A DNA stretch of 12,204 bases from Nitrospinota bacterium (lineage in GTDB: Bacteria > Nitrospinota > Nitrospinia > Nitrospinales > VA-1), in the NCBI GenBank assembly GCA_038108555.1, contig JAYNIA010000028.1, positions 1-12,204 of the forward strand. Reading direction: 5' to 3'. Positions 587-12,046 of this stretch are shown one piece after another. Numbering within the stretch: the first letter of the stretch is position 1; every line of letters starts with the position of its first letter. The translations under genes were made by a program, and so were the position numbers. The notes under the pieces were generated by a model. The model was not told where the DNA came from and did no database searches. It saw only the letters and a list, made by a program, of their open reading frames with translations.

Positions 587-1018
587 TTATTTTCCTGTGG
601 AACCGAATCCCCCTTCGCTGCGGGCTGTTTCGTTCAATTCATCTGCGGCAAGAAATTTTACGCGTTCCACTTTCTGGATCAATATCTGTGCGATGCGATC
701 CCCCGGTTCGATAGGGAATTCGCTGTCGGAGTGATTGAAGAGAAGGACCTTTACTTCGCCACGGTAATGCGAGTCGATGACCCCGGCTCCGCAGTCGATT
801 CCTTTTTTTACGGCCAGTCCGCTTCGTGGCCAGATCAAACCGACATGCCCTTCCGGGATTTCAAGACGGAGCCCGGTTGCGACGAGCAATCGTTCCCCGG
901 GAGGAATCACGGTTTTTTCGGATGCGGTAATATCGGCCCCGGCGTCTCCGGCATGTGCGTACTGGGGAATTGTTCCTCCGGTCACCCGGCAGGTAAGATC
1001 GGATTCGTTTTCATTCAT
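587..1018 (-). CDS. dut: Trimeric dUTP diphosphatase (dUTPase)
   Basis: All five motifs are present: AGADI, PRSGLA, GVIDSHYRGE, GDRIAQ and RSEGGFGSTG. Confidence 0.98.
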   Translation of the reverse strand: MNENESDLTCRVTGGTIPQYAHAGDAGADITASEKTVIPPGERLLVATGLRLEIPEGHVGLIWPRSGLAVKKGIDCGAGVIDSHYRGEVKVLLFNHSDSEFPIEPGDRIAQILIQKVERVKFLAADELNETARSEGGFGSTGK

Positions 1019-1049: not shown

Positions 1050-1058
1050 ATTATATCA
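1050..1058 (-). promoter_or_regulatory. Putative extended -10 promoter for dut
   Basis: Minus strand reads TG-A-TATAAT about 30 nt upstream of the dut ATG. No good -35. Confidence 0.45.
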
Positions 1059-1072
1059 GGAGGAGGGGATTT

Positions 1073-1117
1073 AAAAAAAGAAAACCGGGAAGAGGGTGAA
1101 CGCCCCGCCTTTCCCGG
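1073..1117 (-). terminator. Intrinsic terminator / attenuator upstream of dut
   Basis: Minus strand CCGGGAA...TTCCCGG stem with an inner GGGG/CCCT helix, followed by TTTTCTTTTTTT. Confidence 0.75.
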
Positions 1118-1577
1118 ATAGTTAGTTCGTTTGGTTTTTTATAACTGCAACCGTCCTTGACAAGGAGAGAAAGATTTTCTGCTCCGGTAAGGGCGGGGCG
1201 CTTCCTTCTTTAAGAAAGGAGGCGGGCTACTTTCTTCCGGGTTTTACCCGGGGACAAAAAGGGACTCCATTCTACGCCAATTGGATAGATATCATCTGCC
1301 GAGATGCATCGCAGAGTTCGGCTGGCGCTCAAAACGTTTGGGGGTTTGGGAAGGGATTTGAGACTGCTATACATCCCACTGGTTGCTGTTAACATGTTCA
1401 ATTTGGGATGCATCTCATTCATTACTAATGGAATCCTCTTTTCTAGTAACCCGCCGCTGGAAGATCTGTCAAACCATCTCTCAATTTCTTTAGCCTTCCA
1501 AAAAAACGACACTGCAAATTGGGGCTGATAGTCAACGCCCATGTAAATCTATTCATCGCTTTATATTGTATGCTCCC
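1073..1577 (-). ncRNA. Candidate ~500-nt structured RNA (long 5' leader/attenuator of dut, or standalone ncRNA), family unknown
   Basis: Bounded by a sigma70 promoter (1581-1609) and a terminator. Nested helices 1445-1455/1221-1231, 1427-1442/1257-1271 and 1404-1413/1369-1378, plus 1183-1200/1101-1118. In the first three, each non-Watson-Crick pair is a G-U wobble on the minus strand. Confidence 0.6.
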
Positions 1578-1602
1578 GAAAAAGTACCACTACATATAGT
1601 AT
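1556..1602. promoter_or_regulatory. Tandem NrdR-box-like operator pair
   Basis: Cores CTTTATATTG (1559-1568) and CTACATATAG (1590-1599, within ccaCTACATATAGtat) resemble the NrdR consensus acaCwAtATaTwGtgt. They lie 31 bp apart, the known NrdR tandem spacing. Confidence 0.7.
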
Positions 1603-1609
1603 CTGTCAA
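1581..1609 (-). promoter_or_regulatory. Sigma70 promoter, predicted TSS ~1574-1577
   Basis: Minus strand TTGACA (1609-1604), 17-bp spacer ending TGG, TACTTT (1586-1581): a perfect -35 plus an extended -10. Confidence 0.75.
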
Positions 1610-1795: not shown

Positions 1796-3544
1796 TTATT
1801 GGGTTTTGAACTGGTTCATTTCGAGAGGAATGGGCTCCAGGTGCTTCTTCTTGATCCGATAATACCCATTTTTTCCGATAATTCGGGCGAAGTATTGTTG
1901 ATTGGTGGGTTCAAGATTTCCCACCGCCAGCTGGGCCATTTTTTCGGTTTCATTTTTCCAAATGCTGATTTTATAGGAAGGGGAGGTCAGCCCGGTAGAT
2001 TCGGGGGCTTTTTCTTCGGTAAAAAATTCGAATTCCAGCGCTTTCATGGTCCAAAGCAGGTCTTTTGGCAAAAACTCTTTTATTTTCATTTTTTCGGGTT
2101 GAGTCATGGCCCAGGTGGTTCCTGATTTTTTCAATTCGAAACTGGTTTTTGAAGTTTCGATGATAATTTTACTGGCTTCTTCGGAGTCAAACTTGAAAAG
2201 CTTTTTGTCGCGAAGTTCGTGAAAGCTTCGGAACAATTTTTTAGTCGTTTCTTTAGAAATCGAAAACACGGTGGATTCGCCGGTTCGTTGCGCGAAAACC
2301 TCATTACCTTCCAAATTGCTGTTACCAAAATGAATACTTATGGATTTCCCGTCGGTCAGAGCGATAGAAAAAGAACGTTTGGGTTTGTCGAGTCCAAAGG
2401 AGTCCGTTGCGTCCAAAGACAGTTTGATAAATTCGTTTATCTTGGCTTCTTTTAAGTCAAACAACACACTTCTAACCGTGGCCATGTCTGCTGCAGTCTC
2501 TTCCGGTTTTTTAATTTTCCAGTTTTCTTTATCGACACGAACCGTTTGAATCGTTTCCTTTTCCGTTTCGATATTTATTTCAGTGACATCTTTTTCTTCG
2601 AATTCGATCAGGGTTTTATTTAAAAAGTCGACATTCTTTTTATTAAGGGTGTCGCTGAATTTTGAATCCACCAGGAAAACCTGGGGAGTTCCCTCTTTCT
2701 TCGCATAGGTACCGGAACCAAATTTTGCATCACCGAGATGGATGGAATATTTCTTTTTGTCTTCGTCTTCCAGAAAGAGGGTCGTCGCGGGTTGGTCAAG
2801 GCCATAGGGTTTCAGTGATTCAGGCTTTTCGTTTTCAAATTTTTGAATGCGTGAAAACTGGAGTGCACGCAGGAAGGCCAAAACTGCGTCTTTGTCGCCT
2901 TTGGCTTTTATTTCTCCCTTTACCAGCCATTCCTCATTTTCCCGAACAAGATTTACCGGGTCCTTCTTCCTCTTGATCTCTATATAAGTGATGGAGCCGG
3001 AGCTAAAATTAAAAATTGTTTTATCTCTGAAGTCGTAAACCGATTTTTCGAACTTATCTTTGGAGGTTTCGGCTAAAAGGACTTTTGGATCACTTTCCAA
3101 TTTGAGATAAATTTTTCCTCCCATGGGGCTTTCGTTGCCTAATAACAGGGTCTCTTCGCGGCCGTCTTTAAATTTAAAATGAATTTTGCGGGAGGGATTT
3201 TTCAGGCCGAATTGAGAAAGGTCTTTCGGATTTTCTTCGACGACACGTGATTTTTCCAGGTTCTCTATTTCCGACAGGAAAGATTCGACTTCGGGATTGT
3301 CACCTTGTGATTTCAGAGGTTCTGAAAGATCCCAAGTGGTGTCCGCCTTCTGTTGAAGGGTGATGGAATGGTCATTATTAATTAAGGAGAATTCCTGGAC
3401 ATTTGCGGTTTTGAAATAAAAAACTTTTCCGGCAATTTCTTTTTCTTCAGCTTTCTTTTTTTCAGCAGGCAGGTCGACCAGGAAGTAGTACATTCCCAGA
3501 CCGAGGAAAACGACCCCCATCCAGGCCGTTCCTTTAAACTTCAT
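1796..3544 (-). CDS. DUF4340-like membrane-anchored extracytoplasmic protein with four tandem ~140-aa repeats (accessory to the Gld-type ABC system)
   Basis: N-terminal TM anchor, then four units each ending in a (Y/F)GLxxP-like motif, linked by DFRDKTIF/DFLNKTLI/ELRDKKLF. Start placed at 3544 (ATGA overlap with the upstream stop, with AGGAG upstream) rather than 3562. Confidence 0.85.
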   Translation of the reverse strand: MKFKGTAWMGVVFLGLGMYYFLVDLPAEKKKAEEKEIAGKVFYFKTANVQEFSLINNDHSITLQQKADTTWDLSEPLKSQGDNPEVESFLSEIENLEKSRVVEENPKDLSQFGLKNPSRKIHFKFKDGREETLLLGNESPMGGKIYLKLESDPKVLLAETSKDKFEKSVYDFRDKTIFNFSSGSITYIEIKRKKDPVNLVRENEEWLVKGEIKAKGDKDAVLAFLRALQFSRIQKFENEKPESLKPYGLDQPATTLFLEDEDKKKYSIHLGDAKFGSGTYAKKEGTPQVFLVDSKFSDTLNKKNVDFLNKTLIEFEEKDVTEINIETEKETIQTVRVDKENWKIKKPEETAADMATVRSVLFDLKEAKINEFIKLSLDATDSFGLDKPKRSFSIALTDGKSISIHFGNSNLEGNEVFAQRTGESTVFSISKETTKKLFRSFHELRDKKLFKFDSEEASKIIIETSKTSFELKKSGTTWAMTQPEKMKIKEFLPKDLLWTMKALEFEFFTEEKAPESTGLTSPSYKISIWKNETEKMAQLAVGNLEPTNQQYFARIIGKNGYYRIKKKHLEPIPLEMNQFKTQ

Positions 3545-5097
3545 AAACCCCTTCTCCTCCACCAGATGCGAATGCCGGTGCCGGCCACGATCCCAGGAAA
3601 CACCAGCAGGCCCAGAACAAAAATGGCGCTACCCCAGGATTTAGTTAAATGGATTGGTGTGTTTTTCTTTTCCTTGGGACGAATGGAAATCAGGTTTTCT
3701 TCTTCAGCCAGCCAGGATACGGCATTGAGAAAGAAATCTCCATTTCCGGAAAAGCTGGTGTACCGATTGTTGGCAAAATCCGAGTCGCCAATAACAACCA
3801 GGCTTGCTTTCGGTTGATTTTTTTTATGTTCGTGCGGTTCGCCGGTCTCTTTTTCGGCTTTGCCTTTCTCTAAAAGTTTTGTAGTGACTACCGCAACCGG
3901 GACCGGGCCTTTCAGATCGGTGGCTTCATCAAACTTCACCGTGCCCGACTCAAAGTCCGATTCCCCCCAACTATTGGCGCTGGTTTTTAACAATTCGACC
4001 GTTTCGTATTTTGAACTTGGGATGGTTTTAACGGATTGGATAATAGGAAAGATAGTTGCCAGGGCAAAATCACTGGTTATTTCGTGCACCGTATATTGGT
4101 TTACCACAGGGGCAGCAAAGTCACCGCCAAACAGTTTGGAAAGGGGGTCGATAACAATATCACCTCCCAATTCAATACCCCAGTTTTTCAGGAAATTTTC
4201 CATCCCATGTTTTGCTTTCGGGTCTGCGAGCAGCATGACAGCACCTCCCTTATCAAGGTATGCTTGCAATGCTTTTTGTTCTTCTATTTGAATAGGTTTT
4301 TTGGGTCCGGCAATAACCAGGGCAGAAGCATCTTCCGGGATTTCTCCGGTTTGCAGAAGGAGCAGGGATTTTACTTTGAAACCATCCTGTTCCAGATTTT
4401 TCCTGGCTGTCTGGTAACCCTCGTTTTCCGTGCTATCGATCTGGCTTTCTCCGTGGCCTTCAAGGAAATAAATTGTCTTTTGTTCATCGCGTGTGACTTT
4501 TAGCAATGCGTTGGTAAGGTTTTCTTCAGTGGCGTTTTGAATTTTGGTTTCTTTGGAACCGCTTTCTAAAACAATGGTGCCATAAGTGGTGACACCATAT
4601 TGTTTCGTCACAGCAGGATTTTTGTCGGGATCAACATAAGTTACATCAATTTTTTCAGTTTCTTCCTGATATCCTGAAATCAAATTTGAAAATGCAATTT
4701 TCTCTGCGGTTTCAACCTGGAAAAATGCAGTTAGTTTAACTTCGCGTGGAAGATTAGAAACAAACTTTTTGGTTTGCGGGGCCAGGGTGAACAGGTTGCC
4801 TTCAGTAAAGTCGAACCGGTGTTTGTGGCGATGAATGAGAAGGTTGACAAAAATTAAAATACCGAGGAATACAGCAGTCAATACTATTGCATTGGTTCCA
4901 TGCTGGGCGGTTCTTGATGAAAAGAATTTTTTCAGATTAGTTCCCTCGGAGATCAGATAAAAAATTCCATTGGAAATGGAAATAGCTGTAAGTGAAAAGA
5001 TCAGGACTTTTAGATCGGGAAGAACAATATAAAAAAACAACGCCATAAACCCTGATATCAGAGTCAGCCAGCCTGCTGCTTTGGCAAATTTTTTCAT
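3541..5097 (-). CDS. GldG-family ABC transporter auxiliary component
   Basis: Three N-terminal TM segments, RFDFTEGNLFTLAPQT, YVDPDKNP, IYFLEGHGE, LVIAGPK, VIGDSDF, NGDFFLNAVSWL, and a C-terminal TM followed by WWRRR. Confidence 0.9.
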   Translation of the reverse strand: MKKFAKAAGWLTLISGFMALFFYIVLPDLKVLIFSLTAISISNGIFYLISEGTNLKKFFSSRTAQHGTNAIVLTAVFLGILIFVNLLIHRHKHRFDFTEGNLFTLAPQTKKFVSNLPREVKLTAFFQVETAEKIAFSNLISGYQEETEKIDVTYVDPDKNPAVTKQYGVTTYGTIVLESGSKETKIQNATEENLTNALLKVTRDEQKTIYFLEGHGESQIDSTENEGYQTARKNLEQDGFKVKSLLLLQTGEIPEDASALVIAGPKKPIQIEEQKALQAYLDKGGAVMLLADPKAKHGMENFLKNWGIELGGDIVIDPLSKLFGGDFAAPVVNQYTVHEITSDFALATIFPIIQSVKTIPSSKYETVELLKTSANSWGESDFESGTVKFDEATDLKGPVPVAVVTTKLLEKGKAEKETGEPHEHKKNQPKASLVVIGDSDFANNRYTSFSGNGDFFLNAVSWLAEEENLISIRPKEKKNTPIHLTKSWGSAIFVLGLLVFPGIVAGTGIRIWWRRRGL

Positions 5098-5101
5098 AAA
5101 G

Positions 5102-5869
5102 TTATCTCCAGCGGTTCGAGTCTAAAGTTCGATGGCAAAGGAAAAGTCCAAAAATGATAAAAGAAATGTAGTAAGCCAGGTCGCTGGTTTCTATCATGCC
5201 TTTTAAGAAGCGATCCATATGTTCAATAACGGAAAGGTATTGAAGTACCTGCCCTGTTCCGGAGTCTGCAGTTTGCGCCCCCCATCCAATGACCCACATG
5301 AACAGGGAAAAACCAAAGGTGATTACCGCCGCCACGATTTGATTCTCTGTCAAAGAAGAAGCAAATATTCCGACGGATACATAACAACCCGCCATTAGGA
5401 GTACCCCCAGGTATCCTGTGAGTACAGGGCCGAGGTCCGGCTCGCCAATCATAAATAAAAATCCAATGGAGTAACTGGAAAGAAATATCATTAGGAAAAC
5501 TACAATCATGCATGCCATAAATTTTCCGAAAACGATTTCTTTTAAATGAACGGGAGAAGAAAGAAGAAGGCGAAAAGTTTTAGATTTTTTTTCCTCAGCA
5601 AAACTCCGCATGGTCACCACTGGGATTATCAGTAGCAAAATCACTGCCATGTTTTGAAAGCTTGGCTCAATAACCATTTCATTAATATTCAGGGCCATGC
5701 CCATTTGCTGGAATTGTCCTGACTGCATGCTTTGCAGACTGAAAAAGCTGAGGATGTTTATAAAAATATAACTGTAGACCATAAGGAATACGGTGGTGAC
5801 CACATAGAAAATGGGTGAATTAAAAAAGGAGCCCAGGTCTCTTTTAGCTATGATCCAACTGTTTTTCAT
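5102..5869 (-). CDS. ABC-2 type permease (GldF-like)
   Basis: About six TM helices with motifs IAKRDL..FFNSPIFY, TMRSFAEEKK..T..LL.SSP and SSLTENQIVAA. ATGA overlap with the ATPase stop. Confidence 0.93.
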   Translation of the reverse strand: MKNSWIIAKRDLGSFFNSPIFYVVTTVFLMVYSYIFINILSFFSLQSMQSGQFQQMGMALNINEMVIEPSFQNMAVILLLIIPVVTMRSFAEEKKSKTFRLLLSSPVHLKEIVFGKFMACMIVVFLMIFLSSYSIGFLFMIGEPDLGPVLTGYLGVLLMAGCYVSVGIFASSLTENQIVAAVITFGFSLFMWVIGWGAQTADSGTGQVLQYLSVIEHMDRFLKGMIETSDLAYYISFIIFGLFLCHRTLDSNRWR

Positions 5870-6801
5870 GCGGCAGGTTCCTTTTCTTCAAGAGTGAGTT
5901 TGAGGAAAATATCTTCCAGCGTCATGGAAACAGGTTTGAGCTCTACGATTCCCCAATTATTTTCCAGGGCCAGTTTTGCAATTTTATCTTGAAGGTTTGA
6001 TCGTAATGCGCATTCAACCAGATATTCGTTTTCCTCTCCCTTGACCGCAGAAATTACCTGTTCCAGGCCTTGTAATTTTTCGATGACACTATCCTGAGGG
6101 AGTCTTATTTTTAAAGAAAGGCGTTCGCTTTTTCTTAAAGAAGCGGTTAGGCCACCGAGAGAATCTATGGCGGCAATCTCTCCTTCGTTAATAATGATCA
6201 CCCGTTTGCAGATTTGTGTGATTTCGGGAAGAATGTGAGAGCTGAGAATAATAGTATGTTCTTCAGCAAGCTCCTGAATCAGTTTTCGAATTTCAATGAT
6301 TTGAATCGGGTCCAGTCCAATCGTGGGTTCGTCAAGAATCAGGATTTCAGGGTCGTGGACCATGGCTTGCGCCAATCCCACCCGTTGTTGGTAGCCTTTG
6401 GAAAGTCTTCCAATTATGCGGTGCCCCACATCTTTTAAGGAGCACTTTTGGATAACCCGGTCGACAGAGGCGGGAATATTTTTGCCATCAATACCTCTTA
6501 CGCCGGCTGCAAACTTTAAATAATCTTTGACAACCATATCGGAGTATAACGGAGGGGTTTCCGGAAGATATCCAATGATCTTGCGAATTTCAAGGGATTG
6601 GTCAAAGGTGTCGAAACCGTTTATTCTGGCGCTTCCGCTGGAAGCGGGAAGAATGCAGGAAATAATATTCATCGTTGTGCTTTTGCCCGCACCGTTGGGA
6701 CCGAGAAACCCGACAACTTCGCCTTTTTCTATTTGAAACGAAATATTGTTTATGGCACAACGAGTCCCATAATAACGAGTCAGGTCTTTAACCTCTATCA
6801 T
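5866..6801 (-). CDS. ABC transporter ATP-binding protein (GldA-like)
   Basis: Walker A GPNGAGKST, signature LSKGYQQR, Walker B ILILDEPT, H-loop SSH. GGAG 7 nt before the ATG. Confidence 0.97.
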   Translation of the reverse strand: MIEVKDLTRYYGTRCAINNISFQIEKGEVVGFLGPNGAGKSTTMNIISCILPASSGSARINGFDTFDQSLEIRKIIGYLPETPPLYSDMVVKDYLKFAAGVRGIDGKNIPASVDRVIQKCSLKDVGHRIIGRLSKGYQQRVGLAQAMVHDPEILILDEPTIGLDPIQIIEIRKLIQELAEEHTIILSSHILPEITQICKRVIIINEGEIAAIDSLGGLTASLRKSERLSLKIRLPQDSVIEKLQGLEQVISAVKGEENEYLVECALRSNLQDKIAKLALENNWGIVELKPVSMTLEDIFLKLTLEEKEPAA

Positions 6802-8982: not shown

Positions 8983-9411
8983 TTATTCTGAGCGGTTTTG
9001 TTCCTGTAGATCGGAGTGATCGCCTTCAACTTCAACATCACTTTCCCGGCTAAAAGCAATTTCGTTGTACTCCGTGATCCCTTCATTCAAGCGTAACTGT
9101 TGCTCACCCGGAATCTGACGAACTTCTTTCCCGGTTTTGTTATCCACCACTTCAATGATCACCTTTTGGGTTTCAGGATCTATTCGAACCCGTGTCTTAT
9201 GGTCCGGATCATTAAATTGCTGATTCTCAGTGGAAACATCATTGTCATCGGAGATAATTTTTACAGTGGAAAGTTCAGTGTAATCTCCATCGACATTTCC
9301 AAAAGGACTCACCTGTGGAGGATCGGCAGACCCCTGGGGTTTTGATGGTGTTGAATTGAATTGAGGCGAAAAACTAACTGAAAACGCCTGCGGAAAAATT
9401 GTTAATGACAT
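8983..9411 (-). CDS. flaG: FlaG family flagellar protein (divergent copy)
   Basis: FlaG core RIDPETQKVIIEVVDNKTGKEVRQIPGE, AGGAG SD, located downstream of a flagellin. Confidence 0.85.
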   Translation of the reverse strand: MSLTIFPQAFSVSFSPQFNSTPSKPQGSADPPQVSPFGNVDGDYTELSTVKIISDDNDVSTENQQFNDPDHKTRVRIDPETQKVIIEVVDNKTGKEVRQIPGEQQLRLNEGITEYNEIAFSRESDVEVEGDHSDLQEQNRSE

Positions 9412-9476
9412 TTTTTTCTCCTAATTTGTTTAAAAATCCTATTCCGGTAAACCGGAGAATTTTAGTTGATTAATTT

Positions 9477-10343
9477 TTAAACCCCTTCCAGCAATGTTAA
9501 TGCTGCTTGTGGGTTAATGTTAGCCTGTCCCACCATAGCCACTCCGGCTTGTACCAGGAGTTGGTTTTTGGTCAGTTCGGTTAATTCTTCTGCCAGATCA
9601 GCATCGCGAATGGTTGAAACCGCAGCGGTCAAATTTTCTTCCTGCACTTTCAAATTATCGAATGCATGCAACATTCGGATCTGTGCTGTTCCCACTCGAC
9701 CCCGTACCTGGATCAATGAATCAATGGCAACCGTCAGATCATTCAATGCCTGGAAAGAAGCTCCCTGAGTCCTGATATTGGATCCAGTCAATCCCAAAGA
9801 TGCGGTGCTCACATTGGTAAGATCCAAAATTTCATTCAGATCGATTTGATTCTCTGAACGAGAATCGACTCCCAATTGCAGAACATTGTGGTCTGCTTGT
9901 GGTTGACTTGCAGCCAAAGTTCCATCTAAAAGGAACGTACCGTTGAACTCAGTGGTACCTACAATCCTATCCAGTTCCTGAATTGAGGCCTGGTATTCCA
10001 GATCGGTAGAAATTCTTTCGATATCACCAATGGTTCCGTTGGCAGATTGGGATGCGAGAGACCTAAGGCGCAGTAAGATGCCAGAAATTTCATTCAGGGC
10101 ACCTTCGGCTGTTTTAATAAAGGCTGTTCCATCGATAAGATTTCTAGAGCCTTGTTGAAGAGCGAGAACATCTGCTCGGATGTTTTCTGTGAGGCTCAGT
10201 TCCGCACCACCATCAGAGGCACCTTCGATCCGGATACCTGAAGATATGCGGTTTATGGAACTTCCAAGTTGTGATCGACTTTCTTCAAGATGCCTTTGGG
10301 CATTCAATGAAGATAAGTTTGTATTTAATACTAATGCAACCAT
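9477..10343 (-). CDS. fliC: Flagellin (divergent, minimal D0/D1-type paralog)
   Basis: N-terminal LNTNLSSLNAQR..RISSGIRI and AEGALNEISGILLRLRSLASQSANGT; C-terminal ENLTAAVSTIRDADLAEE..QANINPQAALTLL. GGAGG SD. Confidence 0.95.
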   Translation of the reverse strand: MVALVLNTNLSSLNAQRHLEESRSQLGSSINRISSGIRIEGASDGGAELSLTENIRADVLALQQGSRNLIDGTAFIKTAEGALNEISGILLRLRSLASQSANGTIGDIERISTDLEYQASIQELDRIVGTTEFNGTFLLDGTLAASQPQADHNVLQLGVDSRSENQIDLNEILDLTNVSTASLGLTGSNIRTQGASFQALNDLTVAIDSLIQVRGRVGTAQIRMLHAFDNLKVQEENLTAAVSTIRDADLAEELTELTKNQLLVQAGVAMVGQANINPQAALTLLEGV

Positions 10344-10346
10344 TAT

Positions 10347-10404
10347 CTTTTCCTCCCTGAAAAGGTCTGGCGTTTTATAATTTTAGTTTTTAGCGTCCTT
10401 GCTA
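10347..10404 (-). promoter_or_regulatory. Paired CsrA-type GGA-loop hairpins in the flagellin leader
   Basis: TAGC-AAGGAC-GCTA (10404-10391) and CTTTTC-AGGGAG-GAAAAG (10364-10347, containing the SD). Confidence 0.7.
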
Positions 10405-10444
10405 TTAAACTCGGCTTTTATTTTTATCCGAGATCAATTTCCTA

Positions 10445-11302
10445 TTACTGGAGAAGCTGTAAAACCGATTGCGGAATCAGGTTGGCCTGACCCACCATGG
10501 CTGTTGATGCCTGAACCAGAATCTGGTTTCGCGTCAACAACGCTACTTCTTCGGCAATATCTGCATCTCGGATGGCCGATTCTGCAGCTTGCAGGTTCTC
10601 AATAGTAATAGAAAGATTCGAAATGGTCCTGACCAACCGGTTTTGTACTGCACCGACTTTACCTCGCCCCTGTGTGACAACAGTAATTGATGTGTTCATC
10701 TGATCCAGTGCAGTCAAAGCTGCTCCCGCTGTCGTTAAGCTTAAATTGCTGATAGACAGACTGGATGATGTGACTGCATCCAGGTTAACCTGCTCGTTCA
10801 AGTTAATACTGCTTTCTGAGTTGCTGTTGATGCCTACTTGAATGAGAATTTGGTTTTCTGAAGTTACAGACGAAGATAAAGAACCGTCTACCAACCGCTG
10901 TCCGTTAAACTCAGTGGTGTTGGCAATACGGTCAATTTCAAGTCGTAGTGCGTCAAATTCCAGTTGGATGGTTTGGCGTTCGGTGGAGCCGACAGTACCG
11001 GTCGCCGCTTGTGAGGCCAGTTCTCGGAGTCGAATGAGAATTCCGGATTGTTCGTTGAGGGCACCCTCTGTCACGTTAATGAGAGAGATACCATCGTTTG
11101 CGTTTCTTACTGCCTGACGAAGTGCTCGGATATCAGACCTTAATGCCTCGGAGATGGCCAGGCCTGCTGCATCGTCTGCGCCTCGGTTGATTCGGATTCC
11201 GGAGGAAATCCTTTCTACCGATTGTGCCAGGCGGTCATTGTTAATGCCGAGAATTCTCTGGGCATTTAATGACGGAATGTTGTTAAAAATTCTAATGGGC
11301 AT
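10445..11302 (-). CDS. fliC: Flagellin (minimal D0/D1-type)
   Basis: ERISSGIRINRGADDAAGLAISE, RLRELASQ and GAVQNRL..ENLQAAESAIRDADIAEE..QANLIPQSVLQLL. AAGGAGG SD. Confidence 0.98.
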   Translation of the reverse strand: MPIRIFNNIPSLNAQRILGINNDRLAQSVERISSGIRINRGADDAAGLAISEALRSDIRALRQAVRNANDGISLINVTEGALNEQSGILIRLRELASQAATGTVGSTERQTIQLEFDALRLEIDRIANTTEFNGQRLVDGSLSSSVTSENQILIQVGINSNSESSINLNEQVNLDAVTSSSLSISNLSLTTAGAALTALDQMNTSITVVTQGRGKVGAVQNRLVRTISNLSITIENLQAAESAIRDADIAEEVALLTRNQILVQASTAMVGQANLIPQSVLQLLQ

Positions 11303-11306
11303 GTTT

Positions 11307-11365
11307 ATTATCCTCCTTGATAATTAGGAACTTGGAATTCCTGAGTTTCAGCATCCTTGCTGAAA
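11307..11365 (-). promoter_or_regulatory. Paired CsrA-type GGA-loop hairpins in the flagellin leader
   Basis: TTTCAGC-AAGGAT-GCTGAAA (11365-11346) and ATTATC-AAGGAG-GATAAT (11324-11307, containing the SD). Confidence 0.8.
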
Positions 11366-11478
11366 TTTAAATTAGTGAAACCTTTGTTGCCTTTCCTGAA
11401 CTGTTTGAAATTAAGTTTAACTTGGAAAATCAATGCCAGTTCGATCTATCCCCTCCAGGAAAATCAAACTTAGGTTTT

Positions 11479-11506
11479 GTATCGGGAATTAAAAAAAAAT
11501 GCTTTA
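11479..11506 (-). promoter_or_regulatory. Sigma28 (FliA/SigD)-like promoter
   Basis: Minus strand TAAA-N16-CCCGATAC versus consensus TAAA-N15/16-GCCGATAA. Lies upstream of a flagellin and downstream of a terminator. Confidence 0.6.
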
Positions 11507-11607
11507 TAGTTTTTTTTATCGGAAGAGGAGCGATTTTAAAAAAAAGAAGGGAAGAAAGCTTCTAAACCATTATTTTTTAAGCCTTAGGGTAGGGTTGGCG
11601 GTGAGGC

Positions 11608-11645
11608 AAAAAAAAATGCGCCCCCCAAAAATGCAGGGACGCATT
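11608..11645 (-). terminator. Intrinsic terminator after flaG
   Basis: Minus strand AATGCGTCCCT...GGGGGCGCATT stem followed by a T9 tract. Confidence 0.8.
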
Positions 11646-11701
11646 ACCGATCCAGAGGGGTCGGTCGGAGAAGCCAGTAAATTTAATGTCGAACCTTTAG
11701 T

Positions 11702-12046
11702 TCAAACAGATTGATCCAGAAATTTTTGGTTAAACTCCGCGATACGACTGGTCAATCGCAAGAACTCTTCGCCGGGTATTTGTCGAATCACTTCACCTGA
11801 TTCACTATCTACAATCCGGATCACGACTTCATTGGTTTCTTGATTGACCTGATAGTCAATTTTATTGTTATCCAGAGAGTTGATATCCACCTGAGTTTCA
11901 GAACTTGGAGAAACAGGGGATTCCCTGGTTTCTGACAGATCGCTTTTGACCTCGCCGTAATTTGTCTCCCTTTCAGGTCTGGAGGTTAAGCCCGGTTGCC
12001 CGGGACTTTTTAACCTGCCTGTCAAGGAGGAAATATCGAATTCCAT
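11702..12046 (-). CDS. flaG: FlaG family flagellar protein
   Basis: IDYQVNQETNEVVIRIVDSESGEVIRQIPGEEFLRL and C-terminal FLDQSV. AGGAGG SD; directly downstream of a flagellin. Confidence 0.93.
   Translation of the reverse strand: MEFDISSLTGRLKSPGQPGLTSRPERETNYGEVKSDLSETRESPVSPSSETQVDINSLDNNKIDYQVNQETNEVVIRIVDSESGEVIRQIPGEEFLRLTSRIAEFNQKFLDQSV

Follow-up and report, generated by a model that had tools for sequence, protein, structure and literature searches.

We found that the minus strand of the window, the whole 12,204-nt stretch of Nitrospinota DNA analysed here, carries between positions ~1575 and ~1073 a member of a new structured RNA family. That it is a real functional RNA is close to certain. 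The element very probably derives from a lost short-type gene for class II ribonucleotide reductase (nrdJ), of which it would retain the promoter and the first ~110 codons. In our main reading, to which we give a probability of roughly 0.4, this RNA from a displaced nrdJ would act in trans as a folded, protein-binding molecule, made when NrdR releases its promoters for replication, and would help to regulate DNA replication. Its neighbours in the window are a DUF4340 gene upstream and dut with a macro-domain gene downstream. The features of the locus are as follows.

1742 to 1757, no strand assigned: box A of an upstream NrdR-type pair, scoring 12.8 with a matrix built from nrdJ promoters alone
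1710 to 1725, no strand assigned: box B of the upstream NrdR-type pair, 32 nt from box A
1581 to 1609, minus strand: sigma-70-type promoter read from the sequence (-35 at 1609-1604, -10 at 1586-1581), with a probable start near 1575
1587 to 1602, no strand assigned: NrdR-type box 1, between the -35 and -10, scoring 16.3
1556 to 1571, no strand assigned: NrdR-type box 2, 31 nt from box 1, scoring 4.4, conserved
~1575 to ~1073, minus strand: candidate RNA primary transcript, with predicted start and end
1050 to 1058, minus strand: extended -10 element, likely the promoter of dut itself, with similar sites seen by eye in relatives
587 to 1018, minus strand: dut (dUTPase), above the TIGR00576 cut-off, a usual but not required neighbour

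A preliminary description of this DNA had proposed an undescribed RNA behind an NrdR-box promoter. The promoter lies where it had been placed on the minus strand, with TTGACA (1609-1604), a 17-nt spacer and TACTTT (1586-1581), and is present in 43 of 44 loci. A promoter consensus scan of the window did not list it; its -10 is weak. An NrdR-type box does cover the promoter, with the correction that the window holds two box pairs, at 1602-1587/1571-1556 (31 apart) and 1757-1742/1725-1710 (32 apart). Box 1 is among the top five single sites of the source genome (G000), where such a box follows a -35 at just two promoters, those of the RNA and nrdJ. With the matrix from nrdJ promoters, a pair scoring at least 18 was found at the RNA promoter in 19/21 genera but before only 1 of 581 control (random) genes, and the upstream pair scored at least 15 in 11/21 genera. 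In the same 19/21 genera the boxes over the promoter are paired a whole number of turns apart, as in an NrdR regulon. The genome encodes NrdR (TIGR00244, 191.7 bits; cut-off 124.65). The likely descent of the RNA from a ribonucleotide reductase gene would explain its NrdR boxes.

Box pairs were also found before smc in 15/18 genomes and before parC in 7/16, against 0/13 for the gyrA control. The predicted NrdR regulon thus appears to reach the chromosome segregation genes smc and parC. The preliminary description had missed these pairs, as it had the likely reductase ancestry. In the available part of a study of E. coli and P. aeruginosa (10.1101/2025.03.28.645925), NrdR box pairs occur only at reductase operons. 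As in that regulon, the pairs described here cover the promoter with boxes 31-32 nt apart, and those at nrdJ of these genomes do likewise; in contrast to it, pairs here also stand before a non-coding RNA, smc and parC. The RNA would be a non-reductase target with paired NrdR-type boxes, and the pairs at smc and parC across the order run against the reductase-only view as given in that part of the study. In the source genome, paired boxes precede smc and parC-parE at G000:C1:48075-48121 and G000:C37:8010-8056, and the topoisomerase IV genes are ordered parC then parE (G000:C37:8260-12403).

The fold of the minus strand from 1073 to 1575 has an energy of -158 kcal/mol (z -4.1), which none of 100 shuffles reached, compared to z -1.56 for the plus strand of the same unit, where 8/100 shuffles were as good. 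These values agree with the minus-strand direction claimed earlier. The sense fold was also better than the antisense fold in 28/30 relatives. All three long helices described previously (P1, P2 and P3 below) occur in the minimum-energy fold. The RNA is built as follows, all on the minus strand.

1456 to 1575: variable 5' segment, 92-152 nt in relatives, without a conserved ORF or detected NrdJ likeness
1221 to 1455: conserved core domain closed by P1, 203-259 nt in 65 distinct relatives, likely the stable form
1445 to 1455: 5' strand of P1, pairing with 1231-1221 over 11 bp in the minimum-energy fold
1221 to 1231: 3' strand of P1, from the minimum-energy fold and the two-sided-change test
1256 to 1443: helix P2 (1443-1427 with 1271-1256, bulge at 1437), strongly covarying
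1369 to 1413: hairpin P3 (1413-1404/1378-1369), of variable length
1329 to 1361: J3/4, a C-rich, largely unpaired joint of fixed length (26 nt in 29/31 relatives)
1274 to 1328: P4/P5 with loop and a 17-nt joint containing an invariant CCA, pairs mostly invariant
1237 to 1251: hairpin P6 (1251-1246/1242-1237), absent in genera g11 and g13
1099 to 1202: second domain, a long helix P7 enclosing a conserved triloop hairpin (1162-1152)
1073 to 1117: terminator-like hairpin with U tract, overlapping the 3' strand of P7, the probable 3' end of the primary transcript

P1 is almost invariant at 11-12 bp, and in the minimum-energy fold P4 pairs 1328-1323 with 1279-1274 and P5 pairs 1322-1318 with 1302-1298. 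The strands of a smaller hairpin proposed earlier, UGGAAG/CUUCCA, are complementary as claimed, but the minimum-energy fold does not pair them and not all genera have them. No conserved pseudoknot helix was found between the unpaired joints; one alternative pairing is possible, between the P1 5' strand and J3/4. In the second domain the P7 strands (1202-1192/1109-1099) form a module of -43.3 kcal/mol. P7 is a strong helix in 16/21 genera, its motif was recovered by pattern in 15/21, and among the 21 genera it was not convincing in g3, g5, g11 and g13. The terminator claimed in the preliminary description fares less well: the hairpin exists (1117-1085, -17.5 kcal/mol) but competes with the stronger, long-range P7. 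It does not appear when the whole unit is folded, and a terminator scan did not list it. In most other genera a U-rich tail directly follows P7. The triloop motif was also considered as an antisense promoter and rejected, having by eye no -10 at the right distance.

The helices covary in relatives. In an 18-sequence alignment, 21 of 50 pairs showed two-sided change compared to 10.2 in shuffles, none of 500 shuffles reaching as many, and 93% of cells were paired against 39-47% for slid controls. Two-sided change affected 8 of 15 pairs in P2 and 5 of 7 in P3, and P4/P5 contained one covarying pair (A-U/G-C). Because relatedness inflates covariation tests, the P2 strands were also paired across 20 genera. 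Cognate duplexes averaged -16.3 kcal/mol and non-cognate ones -9.4 kcal/mol, and the sense duplex was better than the antisense in 18/20 genera. Together with this covariation, the conservation of the element and its nrdJ-like promoter build bear out the proposal of an undescribed RNA under NrdR-type control.

Using a covariance model of the 93-nt centre, we found one copy in 90/102 genomes of Nitrospinales, a main group of marine nitrite oxidisers, and in 0/18 genomes of sister orders. Amongst Nitrospinales genomes at least 90% complete, 50/51 carry the RNA. A nucleotide search detected it in 29/41 related genomes. An exact pattern, applied to one genome per species, gave 44 loci, of which 42 have titles naming Nitrospina or higher taxa and two naming Nitrospirota/Nitrospirae with the same neighbours. 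All 53 metagenome loci adjoin dut or the DUF4340 gene. Phages had no copy, and a single 37-nt match in plasmids was judged to be chance. Viral contigs had no copy by one pattern; by another they gave one match, lacking P1 and the C-rich joint, which was also judged to be chance.

Rfam 15 returned no family over the region at E<=5, and none at E<=1 in six divergent loci, so the novelty proposed earlier stands against Rfam. We found no prior description in the literature, subscription papers and motif-table supplements aside. Several known RNAs were considered and rejected. The region has no match to 6S RNA (RF00013), and the 6S RNA of this genome lies at C2:186535-186720 (86.8 bits). The tmRNA is likewise elsewhere in the genome, and an SRP-like motif is on C3. 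RNase P RNA is present elsewhere in 5/5 relatives that also carry the candidate RNA; it was not found in the G000 assembly and is probably unassembled there. A bacterial Y RNA was rejected, the Ro60 (TROVE) protein being found in 0/5 genomes.

We propose the following history and mode of action. An ancestor of Nitrospinales would have gained the long-type NrdJ and the short nrdJ would have decayed, its promoter and 5' coding part being kept and then selected as an RNA. At low dATP, NrdR would release its promoters, and the ~500-nt transcript would be made together with nrdJ, smc and parC-parE. Trimming may then leave a stable form of ~235 nt with P1 as its closing helix. The invariant P4/P5, together with the C-rich joints of fixed length, would present a folded surface, which may bind a protein involved in replication or nucleotide supply and hold or tune it.

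Parts of 1221-1507 are covered by contigs from 4 RNA libraries of as many studies, including one contig of 232 nt over 1221-1451. That one contig stops at 1221 and two others extrapolate to ~1222 through unaligned ends suggests, very faintly, a 3' end at P1. As these contigs show neither strand nor ends, the trimmed form is something we infer. The four libraries were examined from 24 runs matching this stretch, of which 23 were recorded as RNA, from 17 studies, and 22 had a share below 0.2. Positions 1073-1220, dut and the DUF4340 gene had no contig cover, an absence that proves nothing as the runs were chosen by this stretch.

For the activity of the RNA, binding to protein is slightly favoured over pairing to mRNA. 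Invariant bases are scattered in loops and also occur in paired positions, and the joints are of fixed length. No mRNA target was prominent, and G000, a genome 92% complete, gave no Hfq. Since fixed joint lengths and invariant paired bases suit a core read by protein better than a seed, a trans-acting, protein-binding RNA is preferred. The candidate resembles 6S RNA and other stable protein-binding RNAs, with its ~200-250 nt, closing helix, large unpaired joints and possible excision from a longer transcript. It differs from 6S in lacking an RF00013 match and in its multi-branch architecture, and a canonical 6S is present elsewhere in the genome.

The main competing explanation, rather unlikely in our judgement, keeps the same origin and control but makes the molecule a multi-target base-pairing small RNA whose C-rich joints pair with G-rich ribosome-binding regions. 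The RNA does have four or five unpaired CCUUCC/CCUCC-like stretches, and seeds rich in C are typical of small RNAs that work without Hfq. The precedent for a gene-derived origin, OxyS, is moreover itself a regulatory small RNA, according to the available part of its study (10.1101/2021.10.18.464853). Against this, the one genome searched, G000, offered no mRNA start region that was prominent as a target, its longest matches being 10-11 nt and at chance level. The nrdJ start regions do not behave as targets either, 14/15 genome pairs being no better than the 25th percentile. The joints also vary at single positions yet hold their length. We therefore retain the protein-binding reading. A more ambitious version of it is improbable as a whole: a new class in which the front of a reductase gene was recycled as a tertiary-folded RNA, switched on with nrdJ, smc and topoisomerase IV and binding one of these or NrdR, would couple dNTP supply to replication and segregation.

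The evidence for descent from nrdJ comes from the core. Read on the sense strand and in frame, it resembles the N-terminal part of short NrdJ (PRK08665 type; the short genes were typed as PRK08665/TIGR02504). Profile-profile comparison with short NrdJ gave a probability of 91% (E 1e-6); its 66 collinear columns begin at RRV and extend to the residues that follow PIG. The 34 relic rows used were chosen from the 47/65 cores that were stop-free and scored at least 30 against NrdJ, so the result is favoured by this pre-selection. All 65 distinct cores scored best on the sense strand. The NrdJ profile reached at least 8 bits for 26/65 cores, compared to an antisense maximum of 0.6 and 0/2527 shuffles. 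The P1 5' strand (1445-1455) reads RRVT in the old frame and short NrdJ has RRVA. The likeness within the window is clearest over one stretch.

1276 to 1374, minus strand: 33 ungapped codons aligned to residues 60-92 of the short NrdJ query (PNSPTLMNAGR to SACF region)

Over these codons (1374-1276), 12/33 residues and 49/99 bases are identical to the short enzyme, and the conserved cysteine is lost. What the RNA shares with the short reductase gene is the build of the promoter and the residues at ~codons 30-98 of the query segment. The RNA differs in having no conserved start, no cysteine and none of the rest of the gene, and in being frameshifted with a pN/pS near 1 (0.47 in one genus). The earlier statement that the unit holds no recognisable protein holds for Pfam, which recognised none at the locus, but the old frame does bear the imprint of a ribonucleotide reductase by profile-profile comparison.

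Searches between the RNA and the gene were reciprocal. In 18 sister-order genomes, a permissive search with a broader nucleotide model of the RNA had its best match inside short nrdJ in 5, each time on the sense strand, at the same site and at the PNSPTLMNAGR motif. Four of these genomes belong to genus g30 and one to g24, representing two families, with 20-24 bits and E from 5e-4 to 0.02 per genome. Other weak sister-order matches (L243, L244, L246, L248 and L249) lie antisense inside unrelated ORFs and were rejected. In the reverse direction, 117 residues of short NrdJ matched the RNA locus in 4 Nitrospinales genomes (E 0.004-0.08). Short nrdJ is found in 16/18 sister-order genomes but is complete in 0/102 Nitrospinales, and the long NrdJ (PRK07562 type) is found in 37/41 Nitrospinales and 0/18 outside genomes. 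This complementary distribution of the RNA and short nrdJ is one evolutionary event, not many. The RNA promoter has the build of short-nrdJ promoters in sister orders. Three short-nrdJ promoters of family f5 are identical to it at 29-34/50 positions without gaps, and 27/28 long-nrdJ promoters at no more than 17/50. Mean ungapped identity is nevertheless similar for the two types (16/50 for short and 14/50 for long).

The likeness to nrdJ could instead be chance or convergence, the RNA having arisen elsewhere and gained its NrdR boxes independently. Individual homology scores are indeed weak, and four of the five best matches fall in one genus. With the NrdJ profile, the six frames of G000 scored only 6.2 bits at the RNA locus, below several chance matches. 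A profile of the translated relic found nothing in the PDB at E<=10 and no reductase family in Pfam. Against 1.84 billion proteins it gave 28 matches, none a reductase and mostly short ORFs, which are presumably repeats or genes called within the RNA. No gene neighbours are shared either: in 20 short-nrdJ loci there was no DUF4340, ABC, dut or macro gene. No NrdJ likeness was detected in the 5' segment and P7 domain. However, coincidence would have to account for reciprocal matches at the same site and strand, for 66 collinear columns, and for a promoter build and complementary distribution that fit one gene family, the one predicted by the boxes. We consider it distinctly improbable. Some side observations on short nrdJ were made in these searches. 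It is directly followed by smc in family f6 (L263, L264) and by the dCTP deaminase gene (dcd) in f9 and f7 (L250-L256, L261). A Nitrospinales bin (G053) has a short-nrdJ 5' end with an NrdR-type promoter at a contig edge (L269, G053:C339:1-330). The RNA was not found in that bin, and the fragment is contamination or a retained copy.

Descent from short nrdJ follows a route of origin that is already known. In the available part of their study (10.1101/2021.10.18.464853), the small RNAs OxyS and StyR-3 derive from decayed protein genes and remain in the parental regulon. They have in common with our case that the sense strand resembles part of a protein gene in relatives, that this gene was lost and that the regulator site was retained. 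StyR-3 derives from the 5' end of its gene, as proposed here. Compared with what that part of the study reports for the two, the likeness here is mainly in translation, over conserved coding sequence up to the cysteine motif, a ~235-nt multi-helix core is kept across a whole order, and a different form of the enzyme took the place of the parent. Among the marks of a gene-derived RNA, we found sense homology (weak in single scores, clear when combined), loss of the parent and retention of the regulator site, but not the gene neighbourhood of the parent, which was absent from the 20 short-nrdJ loci. The RNA family is new to Rfam and the nrdJ origin is likely new. The corresponding segment of short-nrdJ mRNA shows no consistent structure when compared with synonymous shuffles (z -2.7 to +1.2), and the fold therefore probably arose after the gene decayed. 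The origin of large structured bacterial RNAs is an open question, and this candidate is likely traceable to a named enzyme gene. As the parent gene persists in sister orders, it should be possible to reconstruct and test how an mRNA became a folded RNA.

The preliminary description had suggested a riboswitch-like leader of dut. This does not agree with genus g13. In four of its genomes the RNA, still with promoter and boxes, points towards a convergent ParB-like gene, while other contigs carry dut and the macro gene, preceded by a short spacer that lacks the RNA. The dut gene is thus the usual neighbour and not a requirement, and the RNA is not always upstream of the gene it would regulate, as a cis leader should be. 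In the window, dut has its own extended -10 (1058-1050). In all likelihood, therefore, the RNA acts in trans. A leader or riboswitch controlling dut through a switch between P7 and the terminator is unlikely, more so than chance resemblance to nrdJ. It would fit the position of dut as the next gene in 41/44 genome loci and 51/53 metagenome loci, and P7 and the terminator are mutually exclusive in the window. Yet P7 is not convincing in g3, g5 and g11, where dut still adjoins, g13 retains the RNA without dut, the separate extended -10 is seen in this window and by eye in relatives, and no aptamer family matched. As a side observation, dut was not found with this query in 4/5 genomes of other orders (G041, G042, G046, G108).

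Protein-level selection on the old frame has ceased, and it is the nucleotide sequence that is selected. This follows from pN/pS, from codon-position conservation and from frameshifts and stops. The pN/pS of the old frame was 1.19, 0.87, 0.89 and 0.47 in four genera, compared to 0.10-0.16 for dut in three reliable controls; the g20 dut control (ratio 0.71) was unreliable, probably mis-registered, and was left out. The pS of the old frame was 0.09-0.16, which is two to five times below that of dut (0.36-0.67). Conservation was flat over codon positions (0.82/0.85/0.84). Many members, including the window, have frameshifts or stops, and there is no conserved start. The locus does not look like a functional class II reductase gene, which would have an intact frame, the cysteine and a pN/pS well below 1. 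A translated remnant, in which a short NrdJ-derived peptide or its translation is selected, is the least probable alternative: the old frame is open in 17/30 cores (2 and 4 for the other frames), so that some translation is possible, the P1-to-core distance is in phase in 26/39 rows and 10/18 distinct lengths, and g17 has an ATG-started ORF of at least 142 codons in 8/8 members examined, but pN/pS is near 1 in three genera (0.47 in a fourth), conservation does not vary with codon position, and many members are interrupted and lack a conserved start.

An ATG-started frame of ~150 codons passes through the RNA at g17 loci, among them L028:1670-2080, and shows no protein-level selection; in L028 it ends just before the start of dut. 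Elsewhere in the window, the genes usually found upstream of the RNA occupy positions 1796-6801 and encode an ABC transporter, accompanied by a GldG-like auxiliary protein, and a DUF4340 protein with four repeats. Positions 8983-12046 hold two flagellin genes in tandem, each with a flaG-like neighbour.
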